Shown: positions 37,668-64,000 of the stretch, one piece after another
Layout: every line of letters begins with the position of its first letter
Numbering within the stretch: the stretch's first letter is position 1
Assembly: GCA_001662655.1 (NCBI GenBank)
Contig: KV460225.1
DNA: 64,000 nt
From: Pseudogymnoascus verrucosus
Lineage: Eukaryota
Reading direction: 5' to 3' (one strand)
Notes under the pieces: model-generated
The model's database searches: none
What the model was told of the DNA's origin: nothing
Seen by the model: only the letters and a program-made list of their open reading frames with translations
Made by a program: the position numbers and the translations under genes

Positions 37668-37788
37668 GTGTACTGTATATGGGTGGTGACTTTGGCGCAT
37701 GTAGTGTGTACGGACGAGCGAGTCGTCTTATACCCTCGTTTGTTGGTTTGGGAGGATAATAAGTGTTTATATACTCTGTTTACATAGC

Positions 37789-38045
37789 TACTTAATGGCG
37801 ATATGTACTTTCCCATCTGTTCTCTACATTGACCGATCAGGTTTACTCAATAGCGATTATGTACTTTCCCATCCTTTCTCTACATAGATCGAGCAGGTTT
37901 ACTCAATAGTGATTATGTGCTTTCCCATCCGTTCTCTATATATAGATCGAACAGGTTTATTCAATAGTGATTATGTACTTTCCAATCCGCTCTCTGCATA
38001 GATCGAGTAAGCCTACTCAATAGTGATTATGTACTTTCCCAATCC
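37789..38045. repeat. 56-bp tandem repeat, ~4.5 copies, overlapping the 3' end of the MDR reductase gene
   Basis: tactcaatagtgattatgtactttccc..atcc.ttctc recurs at ~37789, 37844, 37900, 37958 and 38014. Confidence 0.9.
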
Positions 38046-39122
38046 GTTCTTTTTCTCTACTACCGTGGCCAAAGCCTTCACCCGCTCCAGATCCGCCAGG
38101 TCCGCAGTATCACCAACAATCGCCTTCACCGTTCCGCTCTGTGCCCATTCGCCAACCCTCTGCAGATCATAAACACTCATCTTGGTAAATACTGGTTTAT
38201 AGGCAACCCCCCATCGCGACACTCTCCAAGTTTGGACCGCATTGGCAACATCCAAGATTTTCGCCACCAGCCAGGGCGCGGTAGGGAAGTCCTCTCTGAG
38301 GTCCGCTCCCTTCTTGCCGGTGAGCGTGTATAGGATGCCTGTTCCCGGTTTCATGATTTGGATATATTTCATGGACGAATAGCAGGTGTCCAGCATGAAG
38401 TCCACGGTTTGCGGCCCAATCGCCTCGACGACATTTTGGGTGGTGTAGTCAATGGTCTGGTCTACTTTCCCTTCACCGAATAGCTCAATGATGCGGGAAA
38501 CCTTGGCGGTGGAAACGGTTGTGATGACCTTCTTCACGTCGTACACGGGCTTGAGGAGTTGTAAGGCGAGCGAGCCAGTTGCGCTCAGACCTGCAGGGAT
38601 GAAGACTGTCTTGCCTTTGAGGCCGCCTGGGATTGCGGCCTCAGCGGCGTCAAGGGCCTGGATTATCGTGAGGGACGTCGAAGGGAAATAAGACGCATCT
38701 TCAAATGATATATTATCCGGGAGTTTGGCCAGACAGAGCATGCGGTGTGGTTTCAGCAGGAGATACTCTGCTGCGCCGCCGCCGTTGACGGTGAATCCAA
38801 ATACGCGGTCCCCGGGGCGGAAAGCTGTGACGGCCGACCCAACTGCAGCGATAGTTCCAGCGAAGTCAGAGCCGATAATTACAGGAAGTCTAGGAAATTA
38901 GTGTGATTCTCGATGTAGAAGGGAGACGAACTTGATGGTCTGGACGATGCGCAAGGTCCCCGCCGCGCGGGCAACGTCAGGACCCGCGAGAGAAGTCGCC
39001 TTCACACGCACGAGTATGTCTTCATCGCCTGTGATGGTAGGGATAGGGAGGATGAGGTGTTCATATTTCGCAGGCCCAGCAAAGGCAGACACGCCAACGG
39101 CGCGCATAGTTGGTTCCGCCAT
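38013..39122 (-). CDS. Medium-chain dehydrogenase/reductase (GroES-like, quinone/enoyl reductase type); intron ~38890-38931
   Basis: LPIP..DILVRVKA, GSDFAGTI..VGSAVTAFRPGDRVFG and GKTVFIPAGLSATG nucleotide-binding region. No catalytic Zn cysteines seen. Confidence 0.85.
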
Positions 39123-39294: not shown

Positions 39295-39980
39295 TTCCAT
39301 TTCCCATTACCCTCGCCATTCCCCATCGCGCCCGTTTCCCTTACTGTTCCATATTACGATAGTTACCCTCGTTGTTCCCTATCGCGTCCATTCCCCATCG
39401 CCTCTGTTTCTCTCATCGTTCCCTATCGCGCCCGTTCCTCTCGCCATTTCCCATCGCGCTAGTTCCTCTTGCTATTCCCTATCGCCTCTGTTTCTCATCA
39501 TTCCCTATCACGCCTATAACCTTAATTTACACTCTTTAATAAAGATGACTATTTACTATAATAGTAAGAAATAATATAGTAGGTAATTAACTACATCTAT
39601 TAAACTCCCTATAATGTACCTACCTAACTACAAATAAGATTAATTATCCTTATAATCTATTACCCTAAGCCATCCTAGCTATTTAAAGTATTATAGATAT
39701 ATATAGATGTTTTTAAGGAGGACCTTGTTCTTTACGTCTAGTAGCTGCCCCCCTCTTACCCTCTTTAATCACTAAAACCCTTTACTGTAATTACGTAGTA
39801 TAAGAAGAACTCTTGTTAAGCTCTGTCTTAAGGTGGTTAATTAGCAGGAGCACTATAGTAAAGGCACTCGCTAGCAGCCCGAACGCGAAGATGTTGACTT
39901 GATCCTCTAGCTACTCGATTAGTTCTAGCATGCTTAACTACAGCTTCACCGCCTCCCCTTCCTAAGATCCTCCTCTAAAC
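39295..39980. mobile_element. RIP-eroded repeat relic (ttccc(c/t)atcgc low-complexity array followed by TpA-rich DNA)
   Basis: Strong TpA excess (ctag, ttaa, tata) and no ORF. Element family cannot be identified. Confidence 0.5.
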
Positions 39981-39983
39981 CTA

Positions 39984-40523
39984 TCACGCCATACCTCCTC
40001 TCTTCTTCAAATCCCTCGCCTCCCTCTCCAACCTCTTCTCCTCCTCCATAGCACTCATCTTCTCATACTTCCCATCTAATACCCTATTAATATAACCCCC
40101 ATCCCACACCGCCCTGTTCCTCTCCCCTACAACCACAAGCACTAGCAATGCCGCCTCCACCGGCACCTTCCACCACCACTCGCCGTGGGACAAGGCCTTC
40201 CGCACCCCGCTCCTCGTCCTCCGGAGAGCGGCGTACGCCAGCAGCGCCAGGACCGAGTACAACACGACGACGAGGAACACCAGCTGCCGCGACCTCCGGT
40301 GGTGGCGCCACTTCGCGTGCGTGGAGTAGCGGATGGCGGCGAGGAGGCAGAGCGGGCCGACGCAGGTCGTAAACGGGGAGAGCAGGGTGGCGAGGTGGTG
40401 GGAGAGCGGGGTGAGGATGGGGATGGGGCCGCGTTTGAAGAGGTCGAAGTGAACGGCTACCATGAGGACGAAGGAGATGTAGAGAAGGGTGGCGCGGGTG
40501 AGGAGGAGGTTGGTGGAAGCCAT
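39984..40523 (-). CDS. Small hypothetical multi-pass membrane protein
   Basis: 179-aa intronless, GC-rich ORF with about 4 hydrophobic segments. Confidence 0.55.
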   Translation of the reverse strand: MASTNLLLTRATLLYISFVLMVAVHFDLFKRGPIPILTPLSHHLATLLSPFTTCVGPLCLLAAIRYSTHAKWRHHRRSRQLVFLVVVLYSVLALLAYAALRRTRSGVRKALSHGEWWWKVPVEAALLVLVVVGERNRAVWDGGYINRVLDGKYEKMSAMEEEKRLEREARDLKKRGGMA

Positions 40524-40880
40524 GGCCGAGGAGGGTTATTGTAGATCTGATTGATGGGGGATAGGTCGGGTTACGTTACAAATAACACGGCGTTACAAAT
40601 GACAGAACGCTATAAATAACACGACAGTACTACAGTAGAAGGCGAATATAACCTCTACTACCCCGGAATCACAATGAGGGATTTTGCTGCTGCCTTAGGC
40701 CGCACCCACCCCTACACCTACCCTTCTAAATTAGGCTGTATCCCCTACGGTCGCAACGTTAGTGCCACCTCAAACTATAGCTTTAGCTATTCTACTTAGT
40801 AGCAGCGACTGTAGACAGCTCAACCTTTGTAAAAAGCTATAAATAGGCTCTTATATGCTTTATTACTATACCTTACCTAC

Positions 40881-41422
40881 TGTTACGGCTCTCGGAGGAA
40901 CTATGGACCGTGTAGGGTTCTGGTGTTATAACAGGATATCTACTACCGGACTCTCGACATGGTCAATTTCCACTTCCGTCTTTGGTCCTGAGCTGTTGCT
41001 GCTTTAACCTGAGCTTTGGGTGAGCTAGACTGATCTGTGACTGAGCTTGGCTGAGCAAGCATGAGCCGGGTCTGCATTAGCGCAGACCCGGCTCAGGCGA
41101 TGCATTAGCGCAGATGACCGCCAGATTATGCTGCTCGACAATATTTGCTGCCCGCTAAAATTGGAAATTTCCATGTACGCCAGTTCTGGGCTTCTATCTC
41201 ACGTGGTACTAAGTGCGTGCGACGCTAGCACTACCATTCGAGCAAGCTTTCCATTAGGCTCTGATCTTTGGCAATGCTTGGCATGCGGGGAAACTACAAT
41301 GCTGACAAATATTTGACTCCAGACTCCAGATCGCCCTGTTTCCCTATAGAACTATTAGGCCTGATGCATGATTAGACGAGCTTCTAATCCAATAAAGGCA
41401 TACACACTATAACTACCGTACA
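40881..41422. mobile_element. Candidate solo LTR
   Basis: Starts TGTTACGG and ends CCGTACA (near-inverted termini). AATAAA lies ~30 bp before the end. No target-site duplication visible. Confidence 0.3.
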
Positions 41423-41601: not shown

Positions 41602-44170
41602 ATGTCCACAGGACAAAGAAATGTCTCGTACAGCCGCGCTGTCCAAGCGTAATTACACATGGTGAACGTCTCGATACTTTGTTTTGCGCTGACTTGCGGA
41701 CAGATGCAAGCGATGCAAGAGACGTAAGACGAAATGTAGTGGTTCTCGTCCCTGCCGAAGCTGTGGGGAGGCCGAGCACGACTGTGTCTATCCAGATACT
41801 GGGCAACAGGCCCAACAGGTTCTTGTTCCTAGAGAGTAGGGCCGCATTCTATCTGTTTGATCCTTCTACTTGCACGGGCTTATGAGCTGCAGGTACCTGA
41901 ATTATCTGGAGGGCCAGATACGCCTGTCTAAACCCCATGACGAATGTGCCACACCGCTGCAGCATGCACAGGGAATTTCATCTCAAAATGAAGCCACGGC
42001 AGCAGCATGCCTTCCTCTTCCATTAGACCAACAGCGTCGCAGTCCCTTGACCAGTGCACTTGATGGTACCAGCGATTCCGATGTCCTTGAAAATCCTCTG
42101 ATTAGGGACATGGCACGACTTGTTTTAGGCCCATCTGGAACACATCGTAAGCCGTCTCCGTCACTGAGGCTGTACTCTGATGATTAATTCTGAGCAGACT
42201 ACTTAGGAAACTCCTCATCAACATCCCTTGGCCTTCAATTTGGCGATGTTGTCAAGTCGCTCAAACCTGACGACTATAGTGCTGATATAGACGTTGATTA
42301 TTCAACTTGTAATCATACAGCATGGCCTATCGCGCGTCCGCTTCGATCAACAATTCGGCCTTTACCTTCTTACAGCACTGCCATGCATTTGTATGCTGTA
42401 CAGCATATGTATATTGGTACAGTATTTTCATTTGTTGACCCGCACCTGTTTCAGCAACGATTGGCACAAATGTACGAGAAAGCGCCCGACCTTTCGCAGC
42501 TAGATACACGTCTCTCGTACTGTCAAATAATGTTGGTCTTTGCGTACGGCCAACTGTATTCGATCAACCAGTCGACTGGACATGACGGGCCACCAGGGTT
42601 TTCGTACTTCACGGAAGCTTTGGATTTTCTTCCTGACATCCGTGAGGAAGGGTCACTTCTCTTTGTAGAAGTACTTTCTCTTGTTGGATACTTCATGATG
42701 ATATTGAACCGCCGAGACACGGCATTCCTTTATGTATAAGTTCTCTACTCATTTGTATATGTCTCCGTGATGAGCATCTAACACTTCGTTTAGAACGGGC
42801 TTGCATTCCGGATGGCAATATCACTGGGGCTACATCAAGAAGTGCCGGAGCTTGTTTTGATGGATACATCTATGCGAATATATAGAAGGCGCTTATGGTG
42901 GGCTGTATATAGTATGGATAGGTATGCACTTATCTCTAATGTCGTTACGAGTTCACTTACAGTTTAGGATTTTATCTTGCAAATCTGGCAATCCAATCAG
43001 CATTGCTGATGAAGACATTAGCGTCTTGCCACCTTCACCTTTAGTAAGGGCGGTTATACCTTTTACAGATGTCGCTAATGTATTGAAGCCAGGAGAAGAC
43101 CATATCACGGGCTCAGCAGCAATATTATGGCGATATACAACGCTGACGAAGATTCTCGGAGATATTTCAACAAGTATGTGTTCCACAATTTGTGAAGCTG
43201 AACACAAGACTGATTCTTGTTGAGAAATTTATCGTAGAACCCGGCAGACAGCATCCGAACTGATCGTTTCGGTCCTTGGTCTACTTAATAACCTTTCAAG
43301 CTGGCTTCACGACTTACCAGAAGAGCTACGTCTGAATCTCACCGATATGGACAAATGTCCAAATCTATCGCGAGAAATCATTTCAATATACCTTCACTAC
43401 TTCCAATGTATTACAATGACCGCGCGCCCGCTACTCTTCCACGTGGTGGAAAACAGACTCAAGAGTCAGCTAGGTTCCGATACTGGGCCCGCCGCCTGGA
43501 GACAAACCCTCTCTCCTATAACTGTGGCAGTTATCGATACCTGTGTATCAACTGCTATTGATAGCACTGCCGTTATATATGCGGCAGCCAAACAAAATCT
43601 CATCGGTCAGTAATTACCGTCTGCTTCTGTCTTCTCTATATTTCACAGGGATAAGCTCACACTTTGGCAGCTACATATGGTTTTATGGACAGCGACCATG
43701 TATTTTCCACTACAATGGTGCTGGTCATGGGCAACCTCGCCACTCCCTACAATGCTCGTTGCCGTGCATCTACAACAACTGCCCTGTCAATGCTTCAATG
43801 GATGGCAGAGCGAGGTAACCATCAAAGCAAAGCGCGTCATGAGTTTCTCCTAGGCCTGCGAGCCAAGACTAAACATCTCTGGCTGTGGTGCCCACCAGAA
43901 TCCCAGACAGCCGATAGCCAGCCTGAGACTGTGCCAGGGGTTACAACCATGCCTGAGCCTGCCATAGAAGCTTGTCCGTCAACATCGGAAGTATTTGGTG
44001 ATAGAATGGGGAATGATGATACAAATAGAGCGTACGGAAACGTGGCGCCTCTCCAGCTGCACGGTTGGGACGATGAGCTTGGAGTTATGGACGCCACATT
44101 TTGGGAAGATAGCTATGGGAATCTAGAGGTTGGGATGGACTTCGATTGGACTACTGTAGCGGAGAAATAG
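41602..44170 (+). CDS. Zn(II)2Cys6 transcription factor with fungal-specific TF domain, about 8 introns
   Basis: Spliced ACKRCKRRKTKCSGSRPCRSCGEAEHDCVY. Middle region GLAFRMAISLGLHQE..RRRLWWAVYSMDR. Acidic C-terminus. Confidence 0.88.
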
Positions 44171-45127
44171 GTTTTGATGGACTCTATGTACTAGAATAGT
44201 GTAAAGGAGCGGAATATAAGGTTGGAGGCGAACCTGCTGCAAATAACCCTGCGCACAAACGTAAACCAGAGCAATGTCTGACATTCGGGATGCACCTTGC
44301 CTCTATCTACTCGGACCAGCTATTGACACGATTACGAGTTGCTCCTAGCACTACCCGTTTAACGCGGTGATTGCTATCGCCATACTCAGCAATGTATTAC
44401 TATAAATCAAGTATGAAACGTGGATAGAGGCCATTAGAACGTGCCGTCGAAATTTTCTGCTATGGGCTGTGTTGTATCACTGCTATTACCTCGAATCTAA
44501 GGAGCACGCCTGAAATTGAGACTAGGGCAAGTATGCAATTAAGAGCCTATCAGCGTCCAAATAATATAGCAATATGTGACGGTCCCAGGGACAAAAAGTG
44601 ATGCTTCGAAAGCAAGAATGAATTGCCCTCTTGCTTGCGATACATTGTTTATGACTAAGGCGGTAAACAATAAGTTATCATAGATGCGTGTAAGACGCTG
44701 ACACTGGCAAATCTACGCCAACTACGGTAAGCGCGGCCTTTCGGAAATGCCTAGCGTACGCGAATCTTCCATCCAATCGCTGACGTCGGCGGTGCCTAGC
44801 GCGCCTCTTACTTTCAGTTGGTTCCTAGAGAAAACAGAGTTGGTTTAGAACACTTACCGATGAGAACCATATTGCTGAACCCTCCCGATGTCGAGCAGGG
44901 AAATGGGCCTAATAGCTCCGAAGTCAACCCGAACAGCAAGTTTCTCCACGATGAAATTCGTGACATCTCCTCGCCCGCAGGGAATTTCACTCATCACGTG
45001 CTGACCTCTGGCCCAGCATCATTTCTCAAGTCTTATTTGCTCTATATCCTGCCCATATCGTGCCATCATTTTCTTGTCTGCCGCCCTCATACTCTTGAAC
45101 AAGGTATATTTTACCTCTCCGATCCTA

Positions 45128-47580
45128 ATGAATTTACAGACCCATCAATTTCGCTCCTCCGCACCCTCAGAAAAATCTCCGAGTCGGCGACATGGTCGCC
45201 AGCCTAGCTCTGGGACATCCCTCCAATCTGTCAGCAAGCGCTCGAGATCGTACTCTACGGTATGGTAGCCGCCTGCACAATGGTGGCCTTTTAATTTCAG
45301 CTTGACAGAAATCTGCTGATATTGGAAATTTGTTGTAGATCGTCGCAGACAACGTGCCCAGCGATGCATTAGGGGCGTTACAAGCAAAACTATCCCTGAG
45401 AAGGGGAAGCCTAGGTAAGCTTGTAGTTGCTGCCGTGTCTACTGTTTGCCGACGTATTGACATTTTATCCTATCAGATGTGTTGTCTATTAAACCACGAA
45501 CATTTTTGATACCAGTACAGCCGACGCTGAGGGCTCTGTTGCAAAGGGAGGATACTGATAACAATCTCCAGATTACTATCGAAGACAAGGGGCCAAAGGT
45601 ATTCTCTCTTTGAAGCCATATCACTATTTGTACTGACTTTATGCCGAAATAGGTCCTCTCTGTTGGAACCGCTTCTTCGGGCGGAAACAAAAAGTTCCAT
45701 CTTCGCGGTACTTATGTGCTCTCCAACCTCCTGCAAGAGTTGAGTCTAGCAAGCGAATTGGACAAAAGCCATGTAATTATACCGGAAACGCGGCTCAATG
45801 AGAATCCGGTATCTCGACTATCTAGAATCATCAAATACTCGTACTGGGATCGCCTCACTCGCAGAATTGATGCGAACAACATTGAAATCGTCGGCAGAGA
45901 CCCTAAGGATTGGACAGATGACCCACGACCTCGGATATACGTTCCATGGGGAGCTCCGGAGCAGTATGAGTATTATCAGGAGGTTGCTAGAAATCGGCCT
46001 GAGATCCGCTTAGATGTGAGGCGACTCCCCGAAGGCCCCATCAACCCGGAATATGCTCGGGATATGGATATAGCTGCACCGGGGCTTCTTGCGTTGGGAT
46101 TAGAAGAGTATGTCGACGAATTCGGCAAAATTTCAAAGCGCGGACTGCCTTTCGTAGTACCAGGTGGTAGATTCAACGAGCTATACGGCTGGGATAGCTA
46201 TTTTATTCTCCTCGGGTTATTATCGAATGGCCGCACTGACCTCGCAAAATCAATCGTGTCCAATTTCTGCTATTCCATCAAGCATTATGGCAAGATACAT
46301 AACGCGAACAGGTCCTACTATATTACTCGCTCACAACCTCCTTTCTTAACCGATATGGCTATCCAAGTGTACGATCACATTCGAGATGAGTCTGGCGCAC
46401 TGGATTTTCTTCGACAGGCCGTTTTGGCATCTATCAAAGAGTACTATGGCATCTGGGTCGCATTGCCACGTTTGGATCATGTCACACGTCTGTCCAGATA
46501 CCGATCAGATGGTATCGGCATTCCTCCGGAGACCGAAGCATCACATTTCACCCAAATTCTCAAACCATACGCCTTGAAACACAACCTAAGCGTCCCGGAA
46601 TTTATTAAAGCCTACAATCTGTGCCAGATTACCGAACCGGAACTGGACGAGTATCTTCTTCACGATCGGGCTTTAAGGGAATCTGGCCACGATACTACAT
46701 ACCGGTTCGAGGGCGTTTGTGCTAACCTGGCAACTGTGGATCTCAATTCACTTCTCTATAAATATGAGACCGATATTTCTCGCATAATCCGCGACAATTT
46801 TCAAGATAACCTAGAAATTCCTAGGGAGTTCCGCATCTGCGAGATGCAAGTTGGCAATGAAAGTTCTGCTGTGTGGGATCGGAGGGCCAAATTGAGAAAA
46901 CGCATGATGGACAAGTATCTGTGGAACGCAAAAGAGAATATGTACTTTGACTACGATACAATCAACAAGAAGCAAATGTTGTATGAGTCTGTAACAACCT
47001 TCTGGCCCATGTGGGCCGGCGTCGCTAGCCCTCAACAATCCTCTCTCTTGATGCGCCATGCGCTTCCTAAATTCGAAGTCCAAGGTGGGCTTGTTTCCGG
47101 AACGGAAAAGTCACGTGGCAAAATTACCCAGATTCGCCCCAACCGTCAATGGGATTATCCTTACGGCTGGGCTCCACATCAGATGCTTGCCTGGAAGGGT
47201 CTGTTAAGGTATGGATACCAAGAAGAGGCGGAGAGACTTGCGTACAAATGGCTTTGGATGATGACGAAGGCTTTCGTTGAGTATAACGGTGTTGTGGTGG
47301 AGAAATACGATGTCACTCGTCCTATCGGCCCGCACAAGGTTGATGCTGAGTATGGAAACCAAGGCGCTAATTTTCAAGGTGTTTCAAGAGAAGGGTAAGT
47401 CTTCGGTTGGCCATATCCTACATGTCCATTTGCTGAAAACTGTCCGAGTAACTAATGGGGCTTTCTAGATTTGGCTGGGCAAACGCAAGCTATGTCTATG
47501 GATTGCAAAACCTCAATACGCACATGAAGCGCGGTTTGGGGGCGTGTGTTCCATATGAAACATTTAAGAGAGCTACTTAA
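45128..47580 (+). CDS. NTH1: Cytosolic neutral trehalase (GH37); introns ~45260-45338, 45416-45477, 45599-45652, 47395-47469
   Basis: RSRSYST and RRGSLD PKA-type sites, Ca-binding [12 protein letters not shown], and GH37 motifs [49 protein letters not shown] and GFGWAN. No signal peptide. Confidence 0.95.
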
Positions 47581-47801
47581 CGATATGAAGTCTCAAGGAA
47601 AAGATAATTGTTGAGAGTGCGGCACGTTCGGGGCTATATAGTTAGAAGGATGAATTGCAAAAGTTATTTGAATTTAATGACAGTAGGGTTGGATTTACTG
47701 TTGCTTAGGGTTAAGTGTTGTATTAGGGTATATGTTACTGATAAACTATGCTATACAAAATATTAACCCCTCCTAGCCTTATAGGTATTTCTATAACTTT
47801 C

Positions 47802-49421
47802 CTAAGGATCTTCTGCAATAATCGGTTCGTCGCTGAAGAGGTCAATGTGAGTTGTAGCAAACTTCCTCGCTTTGATTTTTTGGTCGAACAGCGCATCTAA
47901 TTCCGCAAATGTACGGCCTTTTGACTCGGGCAGCCGGAAGAAGCTCCATACAAGGCATAGGGTGCAGGATCCCGCCCAGAAGAATCCCGTCTTCGCTTTC
48001 CAGTTCCAAGCCGTTGGGTTAAGCATGTATGGAGTGATAACGCCGTTCACGATGCTGAAGACATTGTACACGATCCTTGCTAGCACGATCGTCTTGGCGC
48101 GGAGCCGTAGCGACGAGATCTCTGAGACAATTGAATAGCATACAGGGCCCACAGTCAGGTTGTAGATCAGAGCAAAGACAAGTAACATGGAACCAGACGC
48201 CCACTGTGCGCCTTTGTTGGAGTTTGGAGCAATGCCAGTGAAGCCAATAATGTACAGCAGGGCGGCAAGTATAGTGAGACCGACAACGTATAGCCTACGT
48301 CGACCGAAGTGGCTCAGTAGAAACCAAGATAAGACGGTTCCAATAAAGCCGATAGCGTACTGGCCCATGGAAAAATTGAAGGAGTTGGTAGGGTTGATTC
48401 CAGCCTGGATGAAAAAGTAGGTCGAATTGTTCATGAATGCCGACCCACAGAGATTTTGGATCGCCCATGTCACGCACGAAATTTCCGTTCGGCGAAGGTC
48501 AGTACCTTTGAAGCAATCGAAGTACGAGGTTCCGCTTGACATTTCCTTCTCGATTTCGTTGGTGTGGATCATCATTGCCACCGTGTTATCAGCACTTTCG
48601 ATGTCGTCGGGGTCTTGGAGTGCCAGGCGCTGGATAACCGCTTTAGCTTCGGCCTCTCGTCCTTTCCTAACTAACCACCAAGGCGATTCAGGTGCAAAAA
48701 GAACGCCAACTATAATGGGCATTGGCCACATCCATTGGAGTGCGTATGGAATGCGGTAAGCCCATTCGCCCTGACGCGTGAGACAGGCACGTAAAATACC
48801 AGAAGCCAGCAATTGACCCATGACCCAGCAAAGGTTGACGTATGTTGTTAAGTAAGCTCTGAGAGCGACAGGGCAAATCTCAGCCGCGTATGTGGTCGGG
48901 ACTGTTTGAAAAACACCCCATGGAATGCCCATAAGAATACAGCCGATTTGGAGTGTTATAATGTTGGGTGCGAAGAATGGGATAAAGATGAAGGCAGTAA
49001 TAATAGACAATGCTATAAGCATTATCTTCCTGTAGCCGATCCGTTCCGCAAGATAACCAGCGACGAAGAGGCCGAGTATCTCCCCAACAGCGGCTCCGTT
49101 ATAGAGACCAGCCTGCCACGCTGCTGAAAGTTGATAGCTGCCATCAGGTTGGCGCTGGCCGTACTTCGTTGTCCAGGGAAGAAAGGCGAGGAATGAGGTG
49201 ATGAGGAGTAGATCATACCCCTCCATGACAACAGCCGTGGAGAGGAGTATAGACCAGCCAATGGCTTTGGGGTAGCGCCTGAGTGCTTCGCTCAGGGACA
49301 TTCTCAGCTCCTTTTCCGTCGCAATCTTAGCCTGTGCTTTGAGGTCTGTCTTTAAGCATGTATTGTCCGTTCCTAAGGACTGGTCCTCAACCATCTCGAC
49401 ATCGTCCTTGGTGAAATTCAT
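47802..49421 (-). CDS. Alpha-glucoside:H+ symporter (maltose/trehalose permease, MAL11/AGT1-like MFS), intronless
   Basis: YPKAIGWSILLSTAVVMEGYD, GIPWGVFQ, LRAYLTTYVNLCW, PESPWWL and PESKGRTFAELD are maltose permease subfamily motifs. Confidence 0.92.
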   Translation of the reverse strand: MNFTKDDVEMVEDQSLGTDNTCLKTDLKAQAKIATEKELRMSLSEALRRYPKAIGWSILLSTAVVMEGYDLLLITSFLAFLPWTTKYGQRQPDGSYQLSAAWQAGLYNGAAVGEILGLFVAGYLAERIGYRKIMLIALSIITAFIFIPFFAPNIITLQIGCILMGIPWGVFQTVPTTYAAEICPVALRAYLTTYVNLCWVMGQLLASGILRACLTRQGEWAYRIPYALQWMWPMPIIVGVLFAPESPWWLVRKGREAEAKAVIQRLALQDPDDIESADNTVAMMIHTNEIEKEMSSGTSYFDCFKGTDLRRTEISCVTWAIQNLCGSAFMNNSTYFFIQAGINPTNSFNFSMGQYAIGFIGTVLSWFLLSHFGRRRLYVVGLTILAALLYIIGFTGIAPNSNKGAQWASGSMLLVFALIYNLTVGPVCYSIVSEISSLRLRAKTIVLARIVYNVFSIVNGVITPYMLNPTAWNWKAKTGFFWAGSCTLCLVWSFFRLPESKGRTFAELDALFDQKIKARKFATTHIDLFSDEPIIAEDP

Positions 49422-50178
49422 GGTTGTGACAAAAAGGGAAGGAGATGTTCTAAGACGATTGGTCGGTGGAACGACAAGTCGAAGTCACGATGATAAAGAG
49501 GATAGAGTATCAAGGTAAAGATAGAATGAACAGAGAAAGACGGGGAATCGACGGACGGAGATTCATGCTCTATTTGTTCTCGGCTTACCCCAGACATTTA
49601 CCCCGGAGTGGGGCCTCGGAGAGGGCGCTACTGCTCTCTTTAACAGGCTGCGCTCTGAGAGGTCGGGAGTGCGGGGAGACAATTGAAGGCAAGTCTATAC
49701 CGACGCTCACAATCTAACCATCTTGGTGACATCTCACGGTTGTGGCAGGAGGGACGAAGTACAGGCTATCCAATATGTCTTAGGTTTCCGTTTAAGCTCG
49801 CTGGACCACTTCCTATCCATGCTTCAAGTTGCAAACTATAAAATCAGTAGCTACAGCGCGTGTACACTAAATGGCAAAGGTTGTACAGACAGATTCAGCG
49901 AGAGTTACTAAACCACGACGTTAGTGTACTAATGAGGCCTTGCCCTCAACACGGATGACTAATAGTTTATACAAAATACTCATAGCCTGCCCCTACAGCG
50001 CAAGGTGCCAATTGAACCACAGAGCCACAGATCTATTGCACAGCACCCTGAGACTCCGCTCTCCGAGCTCGGTACATACATACTTACTGAGGCAATTAAA
50101 ACGTATGATCCGATCGATTTAATGGTGAAGCTACGAAGTGCGCCCGAGTGATGCGGCGTTGGCCATTAGACGTAAGAC

Positions 50179-50375
50179 GCGCGCTAGGCCTTTCCGACAT
50201 GCCGGCTCTTGAGGCCAATATGTGATTGGAGGGGCGAGGAGTGTGCGCTAGGTATTTCCGAAGGGCCGTGCTGCAAGAATTTTGGCTTGCGGGGCGAGGA
50301 GCGTGCGCTAGGTATTTCCGATGGGCTGTGCTGCAAGAATGTAGGATTGCGGGCAGAGGCGCTAGGCATTGCCGG
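50179..50375. repeat. 60-bp direct repeat (2 near-identical units plus 2 partial)
   Basis: ggggcgaggag.gtgcgctaggtatttccga.gggc.gtgctgcaagaat at 50231 and 50291. GCGCTAGG also occurs at ~50181 and ~50359. Confidence 0.85.
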
Positions 50376-50776
50376 TAATGTTGCGGGGACAGACATTGGT
50401 CACACACACGTATCTGGAAACAATTGAATGAGGAGAGGAAACTCGATCTTGAGACCCAGTAGCTTATGACTAACCCGCTCAAAATCGGGTGAAACACACT
50501 ATTTGGCAATTGCAATTGTAACAGCGGCGAAAGATTCAATGATGCCAAAGGATAGTGGAGACAGAAGGGAGCTTCGCCTTTTTTTAAGAAGTCCGGAAGT
50601 TTTGCTGGTGAGGGTATATATATTGCCGTTTACCTTCTCCTATGACCTTTCTCATAATACAGATTTTCCCAGCAAGAGACGTCCTGTATACACGAAAACT
50701 ATCACTCTTTACGAAAGTTTCTTTGTAGGAACGTAAGGGAAGATTTGTGGGATCTAATAAAGTAGGCAATAGGAAA

Positions 50777-52395
50777 ATGGCGTGGGAAGAACCGCGGAAA
50801 ACGGGAATGCTCTATCGCAAGGTGGGCAATTCGGGCCTCCATGTTTCAGTGCTAGGGTTGGGGGGTTGGTTAACGTATGTATTTCCTGTTCTGCTCCCTT
50901 CCTAGTGCCTAATTCTGTGAGTTACTACAAATACTGATATGAGGTGCTGGATAGTTTTGGCGGACATGTTGAGAATGGTGAGTGTTAGTCCTTTTTTTCC
51001 GGGGATTGGGGGGGGGGGGAGAGGTTGCGCGTGAGAGATACGAGTCAAATGACAGATTGACGCTCCTTCGGTAGGGAACTGGTAAATTGGGCTATAGGAC
51101 TGACTTGGTGATCTGATGTGCAGAGAAGACAGCCGCGGTTATGAAGCAAGCGTATGACTGCGGTATCAACTTCTTCGATACTGCCGAGAGGTATGTGCCA
51201 ACCCTATTCCTACCCATATCTGAAATTTGACTTGGGAGCTTGAGAGTCAACTCCGAGACTTTTGCGAGATTATGCTGAGATTATTTTGAGGATAATGCTA
51301 ATGAGGTACTAGCTATTCTGCTGGTCAATCTGAAATCGCGATGGGCAAGGCGATTAAAAAATATGGATGGAAGCGAAATGATCTTGTTATCTCGGCCAAG
51401 GTAAAGTTTTTAGACCTCAGACTTGCTCCTTTCAGACACAACAGCGCGTCAAGCATAACTTTCCCCATTTGTTTCCTCTACATATCAAAACTCGCGCCAC
51501 TCTCTCTATTAGCTGCTCCTAACACCGCATAGCTCAACTGGGGCGGCGCCTATGGCGAAATCTTAGTCAATAACCACGGCCTCTCGCGCAAACACATCAT
51601 CGAAGGCCTCTCTGCCTCCCTCGAGCGCCTTCAGCTCAGCTATGTCGACATCATTTACGCGCACCAACCCGATCGCCTCACCCCCATGGAAGAAACCGTT
51701 CGAGCCTTCAACCATGTCATTAACCAGGGACAAGCCCTCTATTGGGGAACTAGCAAATGGTCTGCAGACGAGATAACGGAAGCATGCGGGATTGCGAAGC
51801 AGCTTGGGATGATCGGGCCCATTGTAGAACAGCCCTGCTATAATGTCCTGGAGCGGACGAAGGTGGAGGGCGAGTTCCAGCGGTTATATACGAGGTGTGG
51901 GATTGGATTGACGACCTTTAGCCCGCTGAAGATGGGCATGTTGAGTGGGAAATATGAGGGCGCAAAGACGTTGCCATCGGGTAGCAGGTTTGCAGAAAGC
52001 GAAGATAAGTTTGCGGTTTTCATGAAGGGACAGGTTGGGGGTGAGGATTGGAATACTACAGTGGAAAAGGTGACCAAGCTGAAGGTTCGTTATCTACCCT
52101 GCTGTCCTAGTTTTGACCCTACTTTCCCTGGATGGCCGCGTGTGAGGATAAGAAACTAACATGGCTGTAGCCCATCGCACAACGTCTTGGTGTTACGCAG
52201 AGTCAGCTGGCGCTGGCATGGTGTCTGAAGAATGAAAACGTAGCGTCAGTGATTACGGGTGCGTCAAGGCCAGAGCAGATTGTCGAGAATGTCAAGTGTC
52301 TGCAAATTCTGGACAAGTTGACACTGGAGGTACTAAATGAGATTGATGGGATATTGGGGAATAAACCGCCCCTTGATCCTGCGAGACAGGACTAG
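50777..52395 (+). CDS. Aldo-keto reductase, Kv-beta (KCNAB)-like subfamily, multiple introns
   Basis: [61 protein letters not shown] and [11 protein letters not shown]. Confidence 0.88.
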
Positions 52396-52752
52396 GTGAA
52401 TGTGTAAGGGAGGGGGTATGGGGAAAGAACGGCATGGGACGGGAGCATGCAGAATGAGAGACGGAATCAAAAAGAAAGATCATATTAAGTAGTAACTTAG
52501 ATGAGATTTGATTTTCTGAATGCTTTAGTTGAAACACAGACTAAAGACGTTAGGGTTAGTGAAAACTGTTAAGAGTAGATACCGGTGCTCGTTGGCGCGC
52601 TTCTCGCCTCCGAGAGCTGCTACCGTCCTGCATGCAGCATCCCCGTCCGTCCCCGCGTCCTCGCAGCATCTCCCTCCGCGTCCTTGCCGGCGTCTTCTCC
52701 CGCGCCTGCTGTTCCACCTGCAGCGGCGACTGCACTCCCGTCCGCACAGCCA

Positions 52753-53485
52753 ATGGCACCTGCCGTCGACCCCAAGGTTTGCTGCCGGCCAGCTAATGCA
52801 AATACTCTCGATTCCCAAGAGGATCAGATTGGCCGATCGCTCGAACAACGACGTCCGCAAGGCCATCTCCCCTGAGGTCCGCGAGACCACCATCCCCGAG
52901 CACCGCGGCGTTCGCAACATTATATCCGGCCACAATAGGGCGGTCTCCATGCCGATCCTTCCCATGACGGTATACGAGTCTATCCACCAGGGGTTCCACC
53001 CCCCAACTCGCACCCCTACGACGTTGCACGAGGAAATCTCCACCCTCATCAACGACCAATACGGTCCTGGCCCTGCAGAGCAGGATGAGGATACGCCTAT
53101 GATCCCGGACAATTTAACCAACAACTCCGCTGAATCTTACCGCCGCTATGCGGCTCAGCCCTATGTCGCCACGTCGCCGAGCTTCGGGAGTTCCATAAGC
53201 ATTACTCGGGCTACCGTCAACTCCACGGGACCCTCTAACAACACTGCCGCGGTCGACTTCGCCGCAGGCAACACTAGCCCTACGAACGAAACCAGCGAGG
53301 CCGAATTCCGGGCTGCCAGCCAAAGGGCAGCTGCCGCGACCCGCGCTGCCTGTCTGCTCATACGAAATGCTCCTAACTTCAACGTTGCGGAAACTTGGAT
53401 GGAGGATTTAAACAATGACCTTGAGGATGTTATCGAGGACGAGCACGAGTTTAGTATGGAAATCTACAGGCCAAATGAGAACTGA
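52753..53485 (+). CDS. Hypothetical orphan protein; probable short intron 52777-52819
   Basis: MAPAVDPK|gtttgc..gctaat..aag|RIRLADR joins a GC-rich open frame ending at 53485. No recognisable domain. Confidence 0.45.
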
Positions 53486-53599
53486 AGCTTCCTCCTATAG
53501 TTTACAACCACAATTTGTTTCCTTTCACTAGCGCATCGTCCCTACGGCGCCACAATGGCCTCCTCCCGCGACTGCTCTTTGTTTCTGCTCCGGTGCTAG

Positions 53600-54757
53600 T
53601 AGAGATCGACTTACCTTAGCTTAGTGAAGGCGAATCTGCCAATAGTATAATAGAGGCTATTACAACAGCTTATGGTAGAAATATACTCATAGCGTATATA
53701 AGGATCAGTCGCTTTCCCTATGGCTGCAGTTAAGAGAGCTTCTAGGACTAAGCTTATGCTATAGGTTAATACTACAAAACTAGCGGCTATAGTTACTCTA
53801 ATGACAGCGATAGATGCTACAGATGTCTAAGGATTCATAAGGTGCATCTTCGCGTACATTCTAGATTCTTAATAGCTATTACATAGGGTAAGGGTTAGGT
53901 AGTAGAAGTATAAGTCTTATTACTTAATTAGGTAGGTAGTAGCAGTAGTAGTAGCGCGTATAGGGTTACTAAACCTAATTAGGATTGTTTCTACATTTAA
54001 GTAAGGCATAATACCTAATTAGGATTGTTATAACATACTAATACTAATTTAGATTATTACAACAGGTAAGTATATGCTTAAAGAGGAAGTAGTACTTATT
54101 AATCTAAGCATAGAGGAAGTTAAGGAGGTCCCTAGTTAGAACAATATAATATAGCAATAGAGAAGAGCCATTACCTTTGTTATTAGCATTATAGAGGTCC
54201 TATTACACCTACTACTAATAGATCTCTTCTATTATAGACATAGAGATCTAATGCTCTTCTTAGATGCTATACAACTTCTATTAATTATTAAGTAGGTTAG
54301 TATAGGCCTGCTTCTTACTATAGAGGTAGGAAAATTCATATACCCCCTTTAAGAAGGTAATTCCTCTACCTTCCTACTATAGAGATCTTATATATCTAGG
54401 ATCTAAGGTAAGATTCTCTATAGAATTGTTATTAAATACATAAACCTTTACTAAATTAAAAGGCGTCTTAATAAGTCTATAAAACTAAGAGTATATTAGC
54501 CTATCTTTAGTCTTAGCTCCCTATAGTGCTATAAAAAGCGTCTAGCCTATTATATCCTATATTATAGCCTAGGTATATATTATACACTTTAGGTTGCCTT
54601 TAGCCTTACTTCTGTTAGGATTAAGGACTGCCTATGTTTTTATATATACGTTAAGGTAGCACTTCTTCTATAGGAACACCTTAGCCTTATAATCCTTAAG
54701 GAGCTAATTATAAGGTAGTGTACTATCTTTAGACATTACCTACTTTATACAATAAAG
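53600..54757. pseudogene. Heavily RIP-mutated, AT-rich relic with residual intron signals
   Basis: Extreme TpA enrichment. Several gtaag/gtagg...ctaat..tag intron-like remnants on the + strand. No ORF. Confidence 0.5.
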
Positions 54758-55221
54758 CCACTTCTCGGGGTCGGAGCTGCTGGATTTGGCAGGGCGCGGT
54801 TGCTGCTTTACGCACCCTTTACCTCCACGCTAACCCAAATGCACGTGATCACAGATCGCGTCACAGCCCCCCACATCGGTTACCCTTCAAACGGTTCCTG
54901 GTTCCTGGTCCCTATGGTCTGCTTTCTAGTTTCCGTTTCTCTCTTTTCTGCTCGCCCTAAGGTACCACCCACCGGCCATCATGATCATGAGGGCCACTAC
55001 ACGGTGTACCACCCGGTCGCTCGGACTGGCCACTTGTTTAAATACCTTGCTATCCCGTGGCCTACATCGTGTACCACCTATCTCTTCCTAAAAGCTGCCC
55101 TCACGCCCTCGAACAAGTCAGCCTAATAGGTATTCGTCTCCTAAAGGCAGCCCCCCGCGACTTAGCATTTAGAGCTCTGCGTTCATCTCATCATCCTAGG
55201 TCTATCGCTAAGTCGCCTGTC

Positions 55222-57785
55222 ATGCCCACTAACGGAATAGGCAACCGGCAACTGCCTACTCTAAAGCAGAACATGATAAGCTTCGTCACTAAACGGACGA
55301 GACAAGCTCAACAGCTAAAGAAGCCTAAGCGTACCGCTAAGGACTACCGGGTTATAGGACGAGAGCTTAGCACTAAATCTTAGAAACCTAACGATGCTAA
55401 AGCTACGAAAGAGAATGTCTAAGGCATATAGCGCAAGTAGTCTAAGTAAGTCAACAATGTCCCCTTTAAGGCTCCTATCACTTACTCGAGATAAGGTTCT
55501 GCGCTTTTTAGGGTGTGAAAGACGTGCGAGGAGCTATTTAACAATGCGATAAAGCGACGACTATGTTGTTCCTATGCTTCATCTACGAGAATTGTAAAGT
55601 TAAGGCGTTTAACTCTGTCTACTAGTACTTGCTGTAGTTTAAACAACTCTATAATCGGGTTAATAGGTGCTACATAGATACAAACGATGCAAAAGAAGTG
55701 TTTAAGGTATGCTCTTGTATTCTATGTTATTTATAGAAGACATGGCACTAACACCACCGTTCTTATAGTATCTAGATATGACCTTAGCAGACGAATTCAA
55801 ACTTAGACGGACGATGAAGGCTAAACTAGTGTTAGGAGCAGACGATATCCTTCTCCTCCTCACTTACCTCTAGGCTTAGGATACCTCCGTATTTCCGACT
55901 AAGGACTAACGGTTAACGACTACAACAATAATGCTCCTTTCTATCTATACTAGTTGTCGACCTATAGAGCTAGTTGACGCTTTAAAGCGTGTAGGCGGAA
56001 AGACAACCTCTTGCAAACGCCCACATATAGAAGTCTAGGATTCCGTTGATGACTTAGATGAAGATGAGAGTGTAGATAAGGGAGAGGGATTAGATAAGCC
56101 GAATTATTAAGGGCGAGCACCATAGGATAATAAAAGCGATTCTGAATATAATAATGATAACTTCGACCCTAACACTATAGAACGGAAATATAAGAGTTTA
56201 TGCTATAAGGACATCTGCCTCTAGATTGTTCGGAACCCTACATAGGGAGAACGAGACCTCCTAGGCATAGAGATCACTTTCTCCCATTATAAAGGTGCTG
56301 ATAGGAAACCGAAACCGTATGTCCCTCTATAATGCCTCTCCCTTATCCTAACTAACTTCACGACTTTAGCACGACTTTCCTCTTTCATAAAGAGGCCCTT
56401 CCTATACTTTGCCCTATTAGCCATGTCTTGGCTCACGTAATAAAGGATGATGCAATTGAGGTTAGAGGCTCGTTGCACGCAGAGCCTTTCTTTACAAGTC
56501 ATCTGCAGCACCCTACGAAAGCCGTATTGATTCACTAGAAGCTAGAGATGCTTAAAAGGCCTATATTTCGTCAGGTGGTGCACTCGTGCGATTTGTTCCG
56601 TACGTTGGAGTAGAAGGCTCTACGCTACTCGACCTACGCTTACTACCTTGATCGTCTCGGCTAGGCGACTGGTTTTAAGCAGAAGTTGACGAGCTACTAT
56701 TTTCGCAAAGGCATAGGAAACGCTGTTGACGGTAAACTTCTCACTGACCATAGCTTGCTTTAACTGACGATTGCGTAGGGGCTGCGACGACAGCAGTTCG
56801 CGACTAGATACTAAGGCACAATCCCTAGACTAGAGTATTCTCTAGATCATACATCAATGAGAAAGTCAGATTCATCGTTCAAGATGCAGTGCTAGACCAG
56901 CCTACCGACTCTGGCTTTCTCTAGGCCTTCACACACATGAGTCTCACCTGTGATCCCCGCGCGCCTCAGACAGTACCTAACCATGTTCGCGATGACCTCC
57001 CGCCTAATCTAGAGCTAGTGCAGCTAAAGCTTAAGCAGCAAGAGCTTCGCTTAGAGCTGAAGCGTTTGTATGGACACGCATTTGTTCAGGGTTCAATTGG
57101 CACAGAAGCTAGTGAAGAATATCGTCAATTAAATCGACAGATTGCTACAGTAACTAAGACGTTTAAGCGAGAGCTCAAGAGGGAGTACCGCCGAGACTAC
57201 TTCTACCAAATCCACAACGAAGAACTTAAGAAGATCATTAAGAAGGTCAAAGTCGTGACACCGACTTATGTTGAGCCAGTCGTTAAGCACCAGCTGTCGG
57301 AACGGACCTAGCTTCAAGAAATCATGTGCAACCTTTCTAAGGATCTAAGTGCACGTGATATCGTCATACGACGGATTCATGCCATCGACACAATGGTCGC
57401 TCTATCTCGTCGCTAAGAGGTCTAGTGTCATAAGTCACGGCTAAGCAAATCGTCCTCGGGGTCTCCTCTTGTAGGGTCCCCCGAGGTGAAGGAAGAATCG
57501 CCTGTTCCTGAAACATTTCCCGTGAAGTGCAAGGAAACTCAGTGTATATTTTGTATTGGTGACGATCGTCAAAGTTATGACAGGCGCATGCGCACATTTT
57601 CGAAACCCGACAAGATGAAGGACCACGTTGAGAGGCATTTAGAAAAGAGGACACTAGGAAAGTATGAATGCTGCCATCCAGTTTGCAAGGCCGAGGGGCT
57701 ACTTCTCGACAACATCATCCTTTTCAAGAATCACGTGGAGATGGTGCATGGCATTAGACTTCGAGACCTAAAATACATCTCTTGA
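55222..57785 (+). pseudogene. RIP-inactivated DUF3435-type tyrosine recombinase (Starship captain-like) with C-terminal Zn-finger-like region
   Basis: Reading through stops gives YT(S)CRP.EL (~55950), LTSYYFRKGIGNAVD|GAATTAVRD*ILRHNP*T.VFS.SYINEKVRFIVQDA, MSLTCDPRAP, EYRRDYF and CIFC..H..RH..CCHPVC..H..H. Stops are mostly TAG/TAA at Q/W-like positions. Confidence 0.8.
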
Positions 57786-57970
57786 AGAGCAATTGGTCCT
57801 TGTAGCATTGTCCATTCTGAACCCCACCTTAAACATTGCCTTCTGCCTTCATTCTGCAAGTATGTGGCGTATATACTAGGACATCGTTCAACTAATCGTA
57901 TATCCCCGTAACCATCAAGCCGTCACGACGTTTCTACCGCGAAGTGAAATAGATGTTCCCGTGCAGGTTC

Positions 57971-60619: not shown

Positions 60620-61807
60620 ATGGCTCAGGTCCAAGGCCACTGCGACGCCCGGTTTTCCAAGCTACGCGACTTAATGCAAGAGTTTATCGTGTCCGGACAA
60701 GACGTCGGTGCCAGTTTGTGCATTAATATTAACGGCGAGGATAACGTGGTGGACATATGGGGGGGGTACGCTGACCCATTGACCAAGAAACCATGGGAAA
60801 AGGATACGGTAGTGAGCGTCTTCTCGACCACGAAGCTAGTCACCAACCTGGCGGCTCTAATGCTAATATCGCGTGGTGTGCTTCGCCCCGAGGACAAGGT
60901 GGCCCAGCACTGGCCTGAGTTTGCAGCAAACGGGAAGTCCGAGGTTACTGTCGGCCAAGTGCTAGCCCACACAGCGGGTCTCAGCACGTGGCAAGACAAT
61001 ATGACACTGGAGGAAGCGTGCGATGTCGAGGCAGCAACCGACAAGCTGGCGCGCCAGGCACCGCTGTGGGCTCCCGGAACCGCCATGGGATACCACGCTG
61101 TGACGCAGGGATTCCTCGTCGGGGAGCTGGTGCGAAGGAAAACGGGAATGTCAATCGAGAAGTTCGTAACGGAGGATATTTGCCGACCGCTGGGCGACGG
61201 GGCGGACTTCCAGCTCGGGTGTCGCAAGGAGGACTGGAACCGGGTGGCCCCCGTCGTACCTCCACCGGGACCTTCGATCCAGAAGGTGCTTAGCCAACTA
61301 CCGGAATACGATCCAGACTCGCTCCTCGTGCGCACCATTTGTAACCCCATGTTCAGCGCCGAGGATGCAAACTCTGTGCTCTGGCGGTCCAGCGCGTTGG
61401 GCTCAGTCAACGGCCACACAAACGCTAGGGCGTTGGTTAAGATCCTCTCCTGCTTCTCGCTCGGCGGTACATGTGCCGAAGGAGGCCATCGCCTGCTGTC
61501 GGCCGAGACGGTAAAACTAGCGCTTACGGAGCATGCGATTGGGAAGGATGTGGTAATGGGGCGGAGCGGGAGGCGTGGACTTGGGATTTACCTCACCGGG
61601 TCGGGGTCGGGGGTCGTCGAAGGCAAGTTACCGGAGGGCAGTGTTGGGTGGGGTAGCGGATGGGGCGGTTCGATCGTGGTTATGGATAGCGATAGGAAGC
61701 TCACGATCGCGTATACCATGAACAAGATGCTAAACGATAATCATCCTTCTCCAGCAGCATACATTAAGGCAGTCTATAAGATACTTGGAGTTACCCTGGC
61801 TGTCTAG
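60620..61807 (+). CDS. Beta-lactamase-fold serine hydrolase (class C/family VIII esterase-like), intronless
   Basis: FSTTK (SxxK), LAHTAG, PGTAMGYHA (catalytic Tyr), GWGGS and AYTMNKM. Confidence 0.92.
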   Translation: MAQVQGHCDARFSKLRDLMQEFIVSGQDVGASLCININGEDNVVDIWGGYADPLTKKPWEKDTVVSVFSTTKLVTNLAALMLISRGVLRPEDKVAQHWPEFAANGKSEVTVGQVLAHTAGLSTWQDNMTLEEACDVEAATDKLARQAPLWAPGTAMGYHAVTQGFLVGELVRRKTGMSIEKFVTEDICRPLGDGADFQLGCRKEDWNRVAPVVPPPGPSIQKVLSQLPEYDPDSLLVRTICNPMFSAEDANSVLWRSSALGSVNGHTNARALVKILSCFSLGGTCAEGGHRLLSAETVKLALTEHAIGKDVVMGRSGRRGLGIYLTGSGSGVVEGKLPEGSVGWGSGWGGSIVVMDSDRKLTIAYTMNKMLNDNHPSPAAYIKAVYKILGVTLAV

Positions 61808-62952: not shown

Positions 62953-63115
62953 AGGTACCCAAAAAAAGTTAGGTACCTGCAATTAAAGGTACCTGACTTT
63001 TTTCAGGTACCCAAAATAAATCAGGTGCCTGCTTCTACAGGTACCTTACATTTCTCCGGTACCTATAAAAAATCAGGTACCTGCTTTTAAAGGCACCTGA
63101 CATTTCTCCGGTTCT
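62953..63115. repeat. Array of GGTACC palindromes in a 52-bp higher-order repeat, 3 copies
   Basis: Cores at 62954, 62972, 62988, 63006, 63024, 63040, 63058, 63076, 63092 and 63110 (spacing 18/16/18). Confidence 0.88.
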
Positions 63116-63237: not shown

Positions 63238-63780
63238 AACCCAGCTGATCAGGCGCGTTTCGGCCTTTGAGATGTGCTGAGCTTTTTCTCGCTGACTCCT
63301 ACTAGCAACAATTTGAGTGCGTTGTAGATGACCCTATATCGGATGCAGTAAGCCTGCATGCTTTAATTGCTTCCAGTATGTACTCACGTATCGTGGAAAT
63401 TTTGCTCTCCCACGCCGCGCACGGTCAGTGCCACTCCCTTTTGAAGCTCGGACGTAACTGTAATTCCAATATAGAAGCAGGTACAGGATTCAGCTGCGAC
63501 AAAATAATATCCCTTTCATTTATAGGTAATATCATCAACAACATGACAACAATGGGTGGAGGATCATTGGATGGAGGATCGACAACCTTAAATGGGGGGA
63601 AGATGGTGCGGGTTTGCGGGATAATCCCGCCTTTTAAAACGTTTCCCCAATTAGGCAGGCCAACACGACAAGTTAAGGCACCAGGAACACCATACTTACG
63701 TGGTCACACTCCACATACATAGCACTCCCTAGTAAATTACAATTATTTCTAGATATATCACAACAATAAAGATCTCTAAA

Positions 63781-64000
63781 ATGGGCCTCGATAACGGCGC
63801 AAGCGCTACTATCCATAAAGTGGAAGAGGCGAACCTCATAGCTGCCTTAGAGGAAGCCGTTCAAGCTGGCCTTCCCGGCATTTCTTGCACCATTGCTACA
63901 AAGAAAGGTGTTATATGGCAGGGCTGTGCCGGAGATGCAGATATCGACACTGGCTCACCCATTGAGGAGCGGCATCTGTTTGGGATCGGCAGCATCACAA
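63781..64000 (+). CDS. Second beta-lactamase/D-Ala-D-Ala peptidase-fold hydrolase, 5' part (runs off the window)
   Basis: MGLDNGASATIHKVEEANLIAALEEAVQAGLPGISCTIA..GDADIDTGSPIEERHLFGIGSIT: the PG motif and F.IGSIT leading into the SxxK lysine. Confidence 0.75.
   Translation, partial: MGLDNGASATIHKVEEANLIAALEEAVQAGLPGISCTIATKKGVIWQGCAGDADIDTGSPIEERHLFGIGSIT

Follow-up and report, generated by a model that had tools for sequence, protein, structure and literature searches.

In fungal MAL loci the genes for the permease and the hydrolase share one divergent promoter, and in yeast the genes for the transporter Agt1 and the neutral trehalase Nth1 are unlinked and the housekeeping Nth1 is used; a yeast study is said to describe two pathways of trehalose assimilation. 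The sugar itself is released into the environment by dead fungi, insects and stressed microbes. Here we describe a locus of Pseudogymnoascus verrucosus in which a gene for a second neutral trehalase, NTH2, is convergent with a gene for an alpha-glucoside-type permease and has a promoter element, CGG-N5-CCTAGCG, in common with it, and which we think likely to be a regulon, or module, for importing trehalose and hydrolysing it inside the cell. The locus lies in a stretch of 64,000 nucleotides (G000:C20:372001-436000, from a 30.2-Mb assembly whose best protein matches are to Pseudogymnoascus), and "the window" below means the whole of this stretch.

The MAL clusters of Saccharomyces (MAL) and of Aspergillus oryzae (malP-malT-malR) resemble the locus in combining an alpha-glucoside permease, an intracellular glycosidase and a Zn2Cys6 gene with shared upstream sites (PMC8180590, in the passages available). 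In contrast to them, the glycosidase here is a GH37 neutral trehalase and not a GH13 maltase, the two genes are convergent with a duplicated block of sites instead of sharing one divergent promoter, the regulator falls outside the MalR family, and the permease belongs to a clade apart. True MAL-type clusters are present elsewhere in the same genome, one on contig C14 (factor, GH13 and permease genes) and a similar one on C7, and in both of these the permease and hydrolase genes diverge from one promoter. The cluster is not a MAL locus by membership, but it likely works like one for trehalose.

The likeness to Saccharomyces cerevisiae lies in Agt1-type uptake (described in the available parts of PMC11595304 and PMC7808424) followed by cytosolic Nth1-type hydrolysis; the difference is that here a dedicated second trehalase gene is linked to the permease gene and the two have a promoter element in common. 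In the passages available from PMC13237430 and PMC7808424, neutral trehalase is treated as the enzyme of internal stores and acid trehalase as that of external trehalose; those from PMC13237430 mention that several trehalases occur in fungi and give no case of clustering there. No description of a trehalase-permease cluster of this kind was found in the open literature, a search that subscription papers and supplements lay outside and that a mention in a cluster survey could have escaped.

Trehalase, permease and shared element

The four genes of the cluster and the copies of the element are as follows.

41602..44170 (+): Zn2Cys6 transcription factor gene, multi-exon (PF00172 and PF04082)
44742..44756 (+): shared element, copy 1, 386 bp 5' of the trehalase ATG
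44787..44801 (+): shared element, copy 2, 341 bp 5' of the trehalase ATG
45128..47580 (+): second neutral trehalase gene NTH2 (GH37), 727 amino acids (PF01204 and PF07492)
47802..49421 (-): intronless sugar-porter permease gene of the alpha-glucoside:H+ symporter (AGT1/MalP) group, 539 amino acids (PF00083)
50182..50374 (-): four tandem copies of the element (motif CGG-N5-CCTAGCG) in the divergent promoter of the permease and aldo-keto reductase (AKR) genes
about 50777..52395 (+): AKR gene, Kv-beta/AKR6 type (PF00248 on the largest exon)

Domain matches and gene models agree in placing the four genes where an earlier note on this DNA had put them. That note had also called the trehalase gene intact and convergent with a gene for an AGT1/MAL11-type permease, and it is both: the model has five exons (45128-45259, 45339-45414, 45477-45598, 45653-47394 and 47469-47580), four GT-AG introns and zero internal stops in 727 amino acids. 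The model is one residue apart from the database protein P0001, which matches PF01204 (E 2e-169) and the N-terminal Ca-binding domain PF07492 (E 1e-16). NTH2 aligns with yeast Nth1 (PDB 5jta) over residues 37-723; its D457 and E660 align to yeast D478 and E674, which we take to be the catalytic Asp and Glu, and its two basic-x-x-Ser motifs, of the protein kinase A (PKA) type, line up with those of the yeast enzyme. A hydrophobic N-terminus is absent (maximum 8-residue hydropathy of 0.12 in the first 40 residues). Judged by its domains, catalytic positions and PKA-type motifs, NTH2 classes as a cytosolic GH37 fungal neutral trehalase, and it very probably hydrolyses trehalose in the cytosol. 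Two other strains also carry a second, b-type trehalase (91.5% identical) and a b-type permease (88%). Between the a and b types of NTH2, 4 of 285 invariant columns differ as against 38 of 356 variable columns (Fisher p 6e-7), and NTH2 is therefore under constraint.

The permease gene is likewise intact. The named matches of the permease are alpha-glucoside or maltose permeases, or general transporters, and its sequence assigns it to the AGT1/MalP group. In a quick tree its clade (Pseudogymnoascus types a and b, P0123 and P0124) is separate from the MAL permeases of the genome and is sister to an Aspergillus/Penicillium clade (support 99). That the permease carries trehalose is suggested by analogy with Agt1, a trehalose transporter (PMC11595304, in the part available). 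Some other alpha-glucoside permease loci in the genome adjoin glycosidase or Zn2Cys6 genes (GH13-type on C14 and C7, GH32 on C38), and one, on C15, a sulfatase gene.

A repeat search gave inverted matches between 44730-44811 and 50172-50272, which prove to be six copies of CGG-N5-CCTAGCG; all six face the same way with respect to the trehalase or permease gene that they precede. The four copies in the permease/AKR promoter (50182-50196, 50246-50260, 50306-50320 and 50360-50374) are spaced at 54-64 bp, at distances of 775-953 bp from the permease ATG. Over the six copies the ten core columns do not change and the flanks vary. Against 0.11 copies expected in the window six were observed, and 0 of 100 shuffles reach six, a figure that flatters the element in that its pattern was defined from the same copies. 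The alignment of the trehalase and permease promoters scores 43, and the best of 200 shuffles scored 30. The whole genome has 20 matches to the element (44 to the reversed control), of which six are here and 14 are singletons on 14 other contigs. The trehalase-side pair resembles the two permease-proximal copies, and this suggests that a block of ~50-100 bp was copied between the two promoters, in one direction or the other. No other copy of the 241-bp block was found in the genome, and the block is not a dispersed repeat. The half-site CGG is typical of Zn2Cys6 factors. The shared element points to co-regulation of the trehalase and permease genes, and it is probably an activator site.

Distribution and origin of NTH2

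Records possibly derived from the source genome itself were set aside in counting assemblies. The grouping is conserved elsewhere: among 20 other named Pseudogymnoascus assemblies in the match and cluster lists, where absence was judged on annotated proteins only, five have factor and trehalase genes with consecutive tags, and in three of the five the permease gene comes next.

V499_01796/97: factor and trehalase
V500_02392/93: factor and trehalase; V500_02394: permease
V501_00177: factor and trehalase (fused model); V501_00178: permease
V502_04601/02: factor and trehalase; V502_04603: permease
VE04_09198/99: factor and trehalase

The four VKM carriers fall in two of the clades of PMC4438637, as far as its available passages go. 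The 90% cluster of the trehalase has 13 members, and the next candidates, among the best 120 of 8000 scored, are at 69% identity. The b-type trehalase and permease genes lie four tags apart on one V502 contig and on different small contigs in V500; in JGI records the two have the same 37,208-bp longest contig.

The earlier note had also supposed that the trehalase was probably a second copy, and the genome search bears this out. There are two strong PF01204 matches, NTH2 and a separate core NTH1 on C63, which are 65% identical over the main exon; a weak PF01204 match on C12 was rejected as a trehalase, the gene being rhamnosidase-type. C63 is the ancestral NTH1 locus and NTH2 the second copy, because the C63 gene nests inside Leotiomycetes and Sordariomycetes (support 100/99) and the gene adjoining it recurs near NTH1 in 10 of 80 metagenome loci, several of which are near duplicates. 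This neighbour is presumably 'F-box-like'; the part of it that was compared with Pfam matched no family. Two metagenome loci group with the C63 gene (support 100). None of the 80 metagenome loci has a permease downstream of NTH1 (41 of them with at least 3 kb downstream) and none has a factor or AKR match; a weak sugar-porter match lies ~9.5 kb upstream of NTH1 in two.

In the trees a long stem (0.63-0.94) leads to NTH2, which does not fall in the clade of the host's own NTH1. The earlier note had suggested phylogenies as a test for horizontal transfer, and the trees do not show it: forcing NTH2 and core NTH1 together is not rejected (approximately unbiased (AU) test, p=0.228, 27 rows). No metagenome sequence joins NTH2 (78 of the 80 loci used), and no close donor was found among the best 120 of 8000 scored candidates or among the metagenome loci. 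NTH2 may have come from an old duplication or by transfer from an unsampled fungus.

Other possible clues to origin were discarded. NTH2 is 68% identical to Xylona and Eurotiomycetes proteins and 65% to its own core NTH1, and we did not use this as a sign of transfer since both copies are long-branched and the AU test did not reject their grouping. NTH2 and core NTH1 have their four introns at the same positions and in the same phases, and the last two of these sites recur generally among the metagenome NTH1 loci; intron positions exclude a retrocopy only. The GC content at third codon positions, computed with two rows left out for frame errors, is low in NTH2 (0.50), the factor (0.43-0.48) and the permease (0.57) and higher in core NTH1 (0.78) and the C14 MAL genes (0.59-0.64); accessory or weakly expressed genes would fit the low values as well as transferred ones.

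The Zn2Cys6 factor and the binder of the element

The six-Cys zinc cluster of the factor matches PF00172 at window 41702-41836, and the protein P0405 (712 amino acids, PF00172 and PF04082) maps across 41602-44167. A close likeness within the genome is to the regulator of an oxoprolinase/D-glutamate-cyclase cluster on C34 (G000:C34:14.6-24.9 kb; transporter, Zn2Cys6 factor, D-glutamate cyclase and oxoprolinase), with which the factor is 44% identical over 704 aligned residues. The two fall in a common family tree, whose JGI label is 'proline utilization trans-activator'; in contrast to the C34 regulator, the factor in the window is on a long separate branch (0.94) and has sugar genes and no oxoprolinase genes nearby. 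With the C14 MAL activator it has a 43-residue zinc-finger match (E 8e-7) and an insignificant stretch (E 0.22). By sequence it is not MalR-like and belongs to the oxoprolinase-cluster family. The term 'MAL-style', which the earlier note had used of the cluster, is not supported for the regulator, whose match to a MAL activator is weak outside the zinc finger.

In the import-and-hydrolyse module as we envisage it, a Zn2Cys6 activator, most likely the adjacent one, would bind CGG-N5-CCTAGCG and co-induce the trehalase, the permease and probably the AKR. The permease, to judge from its family, would import trehalose by proton symport as yeast Agt1 does, and cytosolic NTH2, with its Ca-binding and PKA/14-3-3-type motifs, would very probably split it to glucose. 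If the disaccharide is taken up whole, the glucose would stay private to the cell, which it would not with the GH65 acid-trehalase route that this genome encodes as well. The sites common to the trehalase and permease promoters appear to have arisen through duplication of the one block. A more specific history, which we put forward only tentatively, is that the regulon was built independently of MAL, the duplicated trehalase gene having gained the sites of the permease gene and both having come under a factor recruited from the oxoprolinase-cluster family.

The first of these steps is contested by an alternative that otherwise overlaps with the proposed module, namely that the element does co-regulate the genes, yet is bound by a factor acting in trans, of the AmyR/COL-26 or MalR type, and that the adjacent Zn2Cys6 gene is a bystander. 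The element can be read as CGG-N8-AGC, one letter off the AmyR site CGGN8(C/A)GG given in the available part of PMC8180590, where the MalR site is described as unknown; growth on trehalose needs COL-26/BglR (PMC5435353, in the passages available); one copy with a single mismatch lies in the divergent promoter of the C14 MAL cluster; and no b-type local factor was found among proteins of up to 732 amino acids. However, the exact element is missing from both MAL promoters and is clustered nowhere else in the genome, one-mismatch copies also lie in both divergent C34 promoters (though a six-site matrix does not rank them), and the factor gene adjoins the trehalase gene in all five of the other carrier assemblies. 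We regard a trans-acting binder with the local gene as a bystander as possible but doubtful, and taken by itself the question of whether the local factor or a trans-acting amylolytic factor binds the element stands at about even odds.

The exact element is absent also upstream of core NTH1, from the 520 bp before the GH65 open reading frame and from the C34 promoters. The near-matches were tried as a means of assigning the binder and do not decide it; they occur at both C34 and C14, and the binder is therefore not assignable from them. Counts of AmyR-, Mal63-, Put3- and CreA-type patterns gave nothing decisive in these promoters.

If the import-and-hydrolyse module is correct, a filamentous fungus would privatise environmental trehalose by means of a clustered neutral trehalase and its own importer. 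Should the adjacent factor be the binder, it would be a dedicated fungal trehalose-responsive activator with CGG-N5-CCTAGCG as its binding site, and this candidate with its predicted site could serve as an inducible promoter. The locus would also be a readable case of co-regulation arising in a young metabolic cluster, with a reach so far limited to one clade of one genus. A sequencing run considered as evidence of expression consists of short contigs, one of which crosses trehalase intron 1 unspliced; it is probably DNA and was used neither way.

Other targets, chance gathering and the flanking DNA

Several observations weigh against a module for importing and hydrolysing trehalose. The role of the AKR is its weakest link. 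The largest exon of this gene matches PF00248, its best PDB matches are Kv-beta2/AKR6 proteins and it has a paralog on C3 (61% identical); it is divergent from the permease gene, its exon structure was read only in part, and its product may handle reactive carbonyls from sugar flux. Exact look-ups of eight sequences out of ten, fragments of the AKR and of core NTH1 among them, gave no match in the protein collection. For four copies of the element the AKR start (~400-600 bp) is nearer than that of the permease. The genome also encodes a GH65 acid trehalase (on C27) and has other loci for alpha-glucoside permeases, at least 15 of them, and the function of the cluster would therefore be partly redundant. 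Of 285 columns that are otherwise invariant, NTH2 differs at 23 and core NTH1 at five (70 reference proteins); the changes in NTH2 fit either specialisation or relaxed selection. The oxoprolinase-cluster family of the factor has no known sugar role, the exact element is absent from the factor's own upstream region, and that no b-type factor turned up among proteins of up to 732 amino acids counts here as well. One assembly encodes a permease of 74% identity (P0123), yet NTH2 was not found for it in the best 120 of 8000 scored candidates. Finally, the letters in common could have arisen by tandem or inverted duplication and nothing more.

Some of these points would suit a co-regulated module with another target: a trehalose analogue or oxidised trehalose (reduced by the AKR), a trehalase inhibitor, or the organism's own trehalose, leaked and taken up again after freeze or osmotic stress. 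The proximity of four of the six sites to the AKR start, the NTH2 changes, a regulator from a non-sugar family and the acid trehalase gene already in the genome all agree with such a target. Nevertheless, NTH2 retains the Nth1 motifs around the catalytic residues and the present data point to no other substrate, and we consider another target unlikely.

The DNA on either side of the cluster bears on the last alternative. Ordinary genes (e.g. one for a DOCK protein) fill the left 37.7 kb of the window, repeat-rich sequence begins at ~37.8 kb, and the contig ends 33 kb past the window.

39501..41000 (no strand): left flank, stretches marked by repeat-induced point mutation (RIP) and a dispersed repeat, around a 179-residue gene (RIP index, genome copies)
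53501..57404 (no strand): right flank, RIP-marked relics including a stop-broken DUF3435 gene (RIP index, stops)

The four genes lie between these RIP-marked repeats, and RIP relics on both sides, as the earlier note had it, are confirmed by the composite index, which in 500-bp windows is +1.0 to +1.2 at 39501 and 40501 (39.5-41 kb) and +0.8 to +1.2 across 53501-56000 (53.5-56 kb), and is negative or near zero in the four coding regions. The dispersed repeat at 40632-40880 has copies on C4 and C28 (86-87% identical). Both neighbour genes of the cluster are strain-specific.

A chance gathering of unrelated accessory genes in a repeat-rich region, the sequence in common being left over from an inverted duplication or from transposon ends and not a regulatory site, would suit the RIP-marked flanks, the strain-specific neighbours, a contig end within ~50 kb, the two blocks forming an inverted repeat around the trehalase and permease genes, the differing nearest relatives of the three conserved genes, and carriers so closely related that conserved order could be passive, but it is a shade less likely even than another target, as the block has no other genomic copy, only the CGG and CCTAGCG columns are invariant over the six copies, the extra tandem copies are on one side only, and NTH2 is under constraint and its linkage to the permease gene has been kept across the a/b split.

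Starship elements carry their cargo downstream of an inward-pointing DUF3435 captain gene. There is a likeness here in that, 4 kb right of the cluster, there is a DUF3435 gene and after it a gene whose product is 92% identical to a Penicillium protein; in contrast to a Starship captain, this DUF3435 gene is interrupted by stops and is directed away from the cluster, which would therefore lie outside such an element. The mobility that the earlier note had thought possible for the cluster is accordingly not upheld by this gene. On C20, DUF3435 matches occur only at window 56377-57404 (+), with seven stops.

Further features of the flanks were seen. The broken DUF3435 gene spans 56377-57786 (+), is RIP-marked and has a Cys/His-rich C-terminal stretch; the genome has 19 DUF3435 matches, most with stops. 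The gene that follows it, at 60620-61807 (+), is an intronless member of the PF00144 beta-lactamase family whose 92%-identical match is from Penicillium concentricum, and it clusters at 90% with three Penicillium proteins and a protein of one other Pseudogymnoascus. Its sequence makes a recent transfer between fungal classes likely and, downstream of the DUF3435 gene as it is, it is possibly Starship-type cargo. A second PF00144 gene crosses the window end (63772-64000 and the next 971 bp, +).

Left of the cluster, a 179-residue membrane-type protein with no Pfam match is encoded at 39984-40523 (-), between two RIP-marked stretches, and only one other named assembly has it. Right after the AKR gene, an open frame of 318 residues at 52529-53485 (+), also with no Pfam match, runs into RIP-degraded sequence and is probably the remnant of a transposon gene. 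Tandem repeats of 56-58 bp at 37765-38059 duplicate the 3' end of a Zn-dependent dehydrogenase gene at 38013-39120 (-), and three tandem units of 52 bp at 62954-63112, rich in a palindromic hexamer, also score as an inverted repeat.

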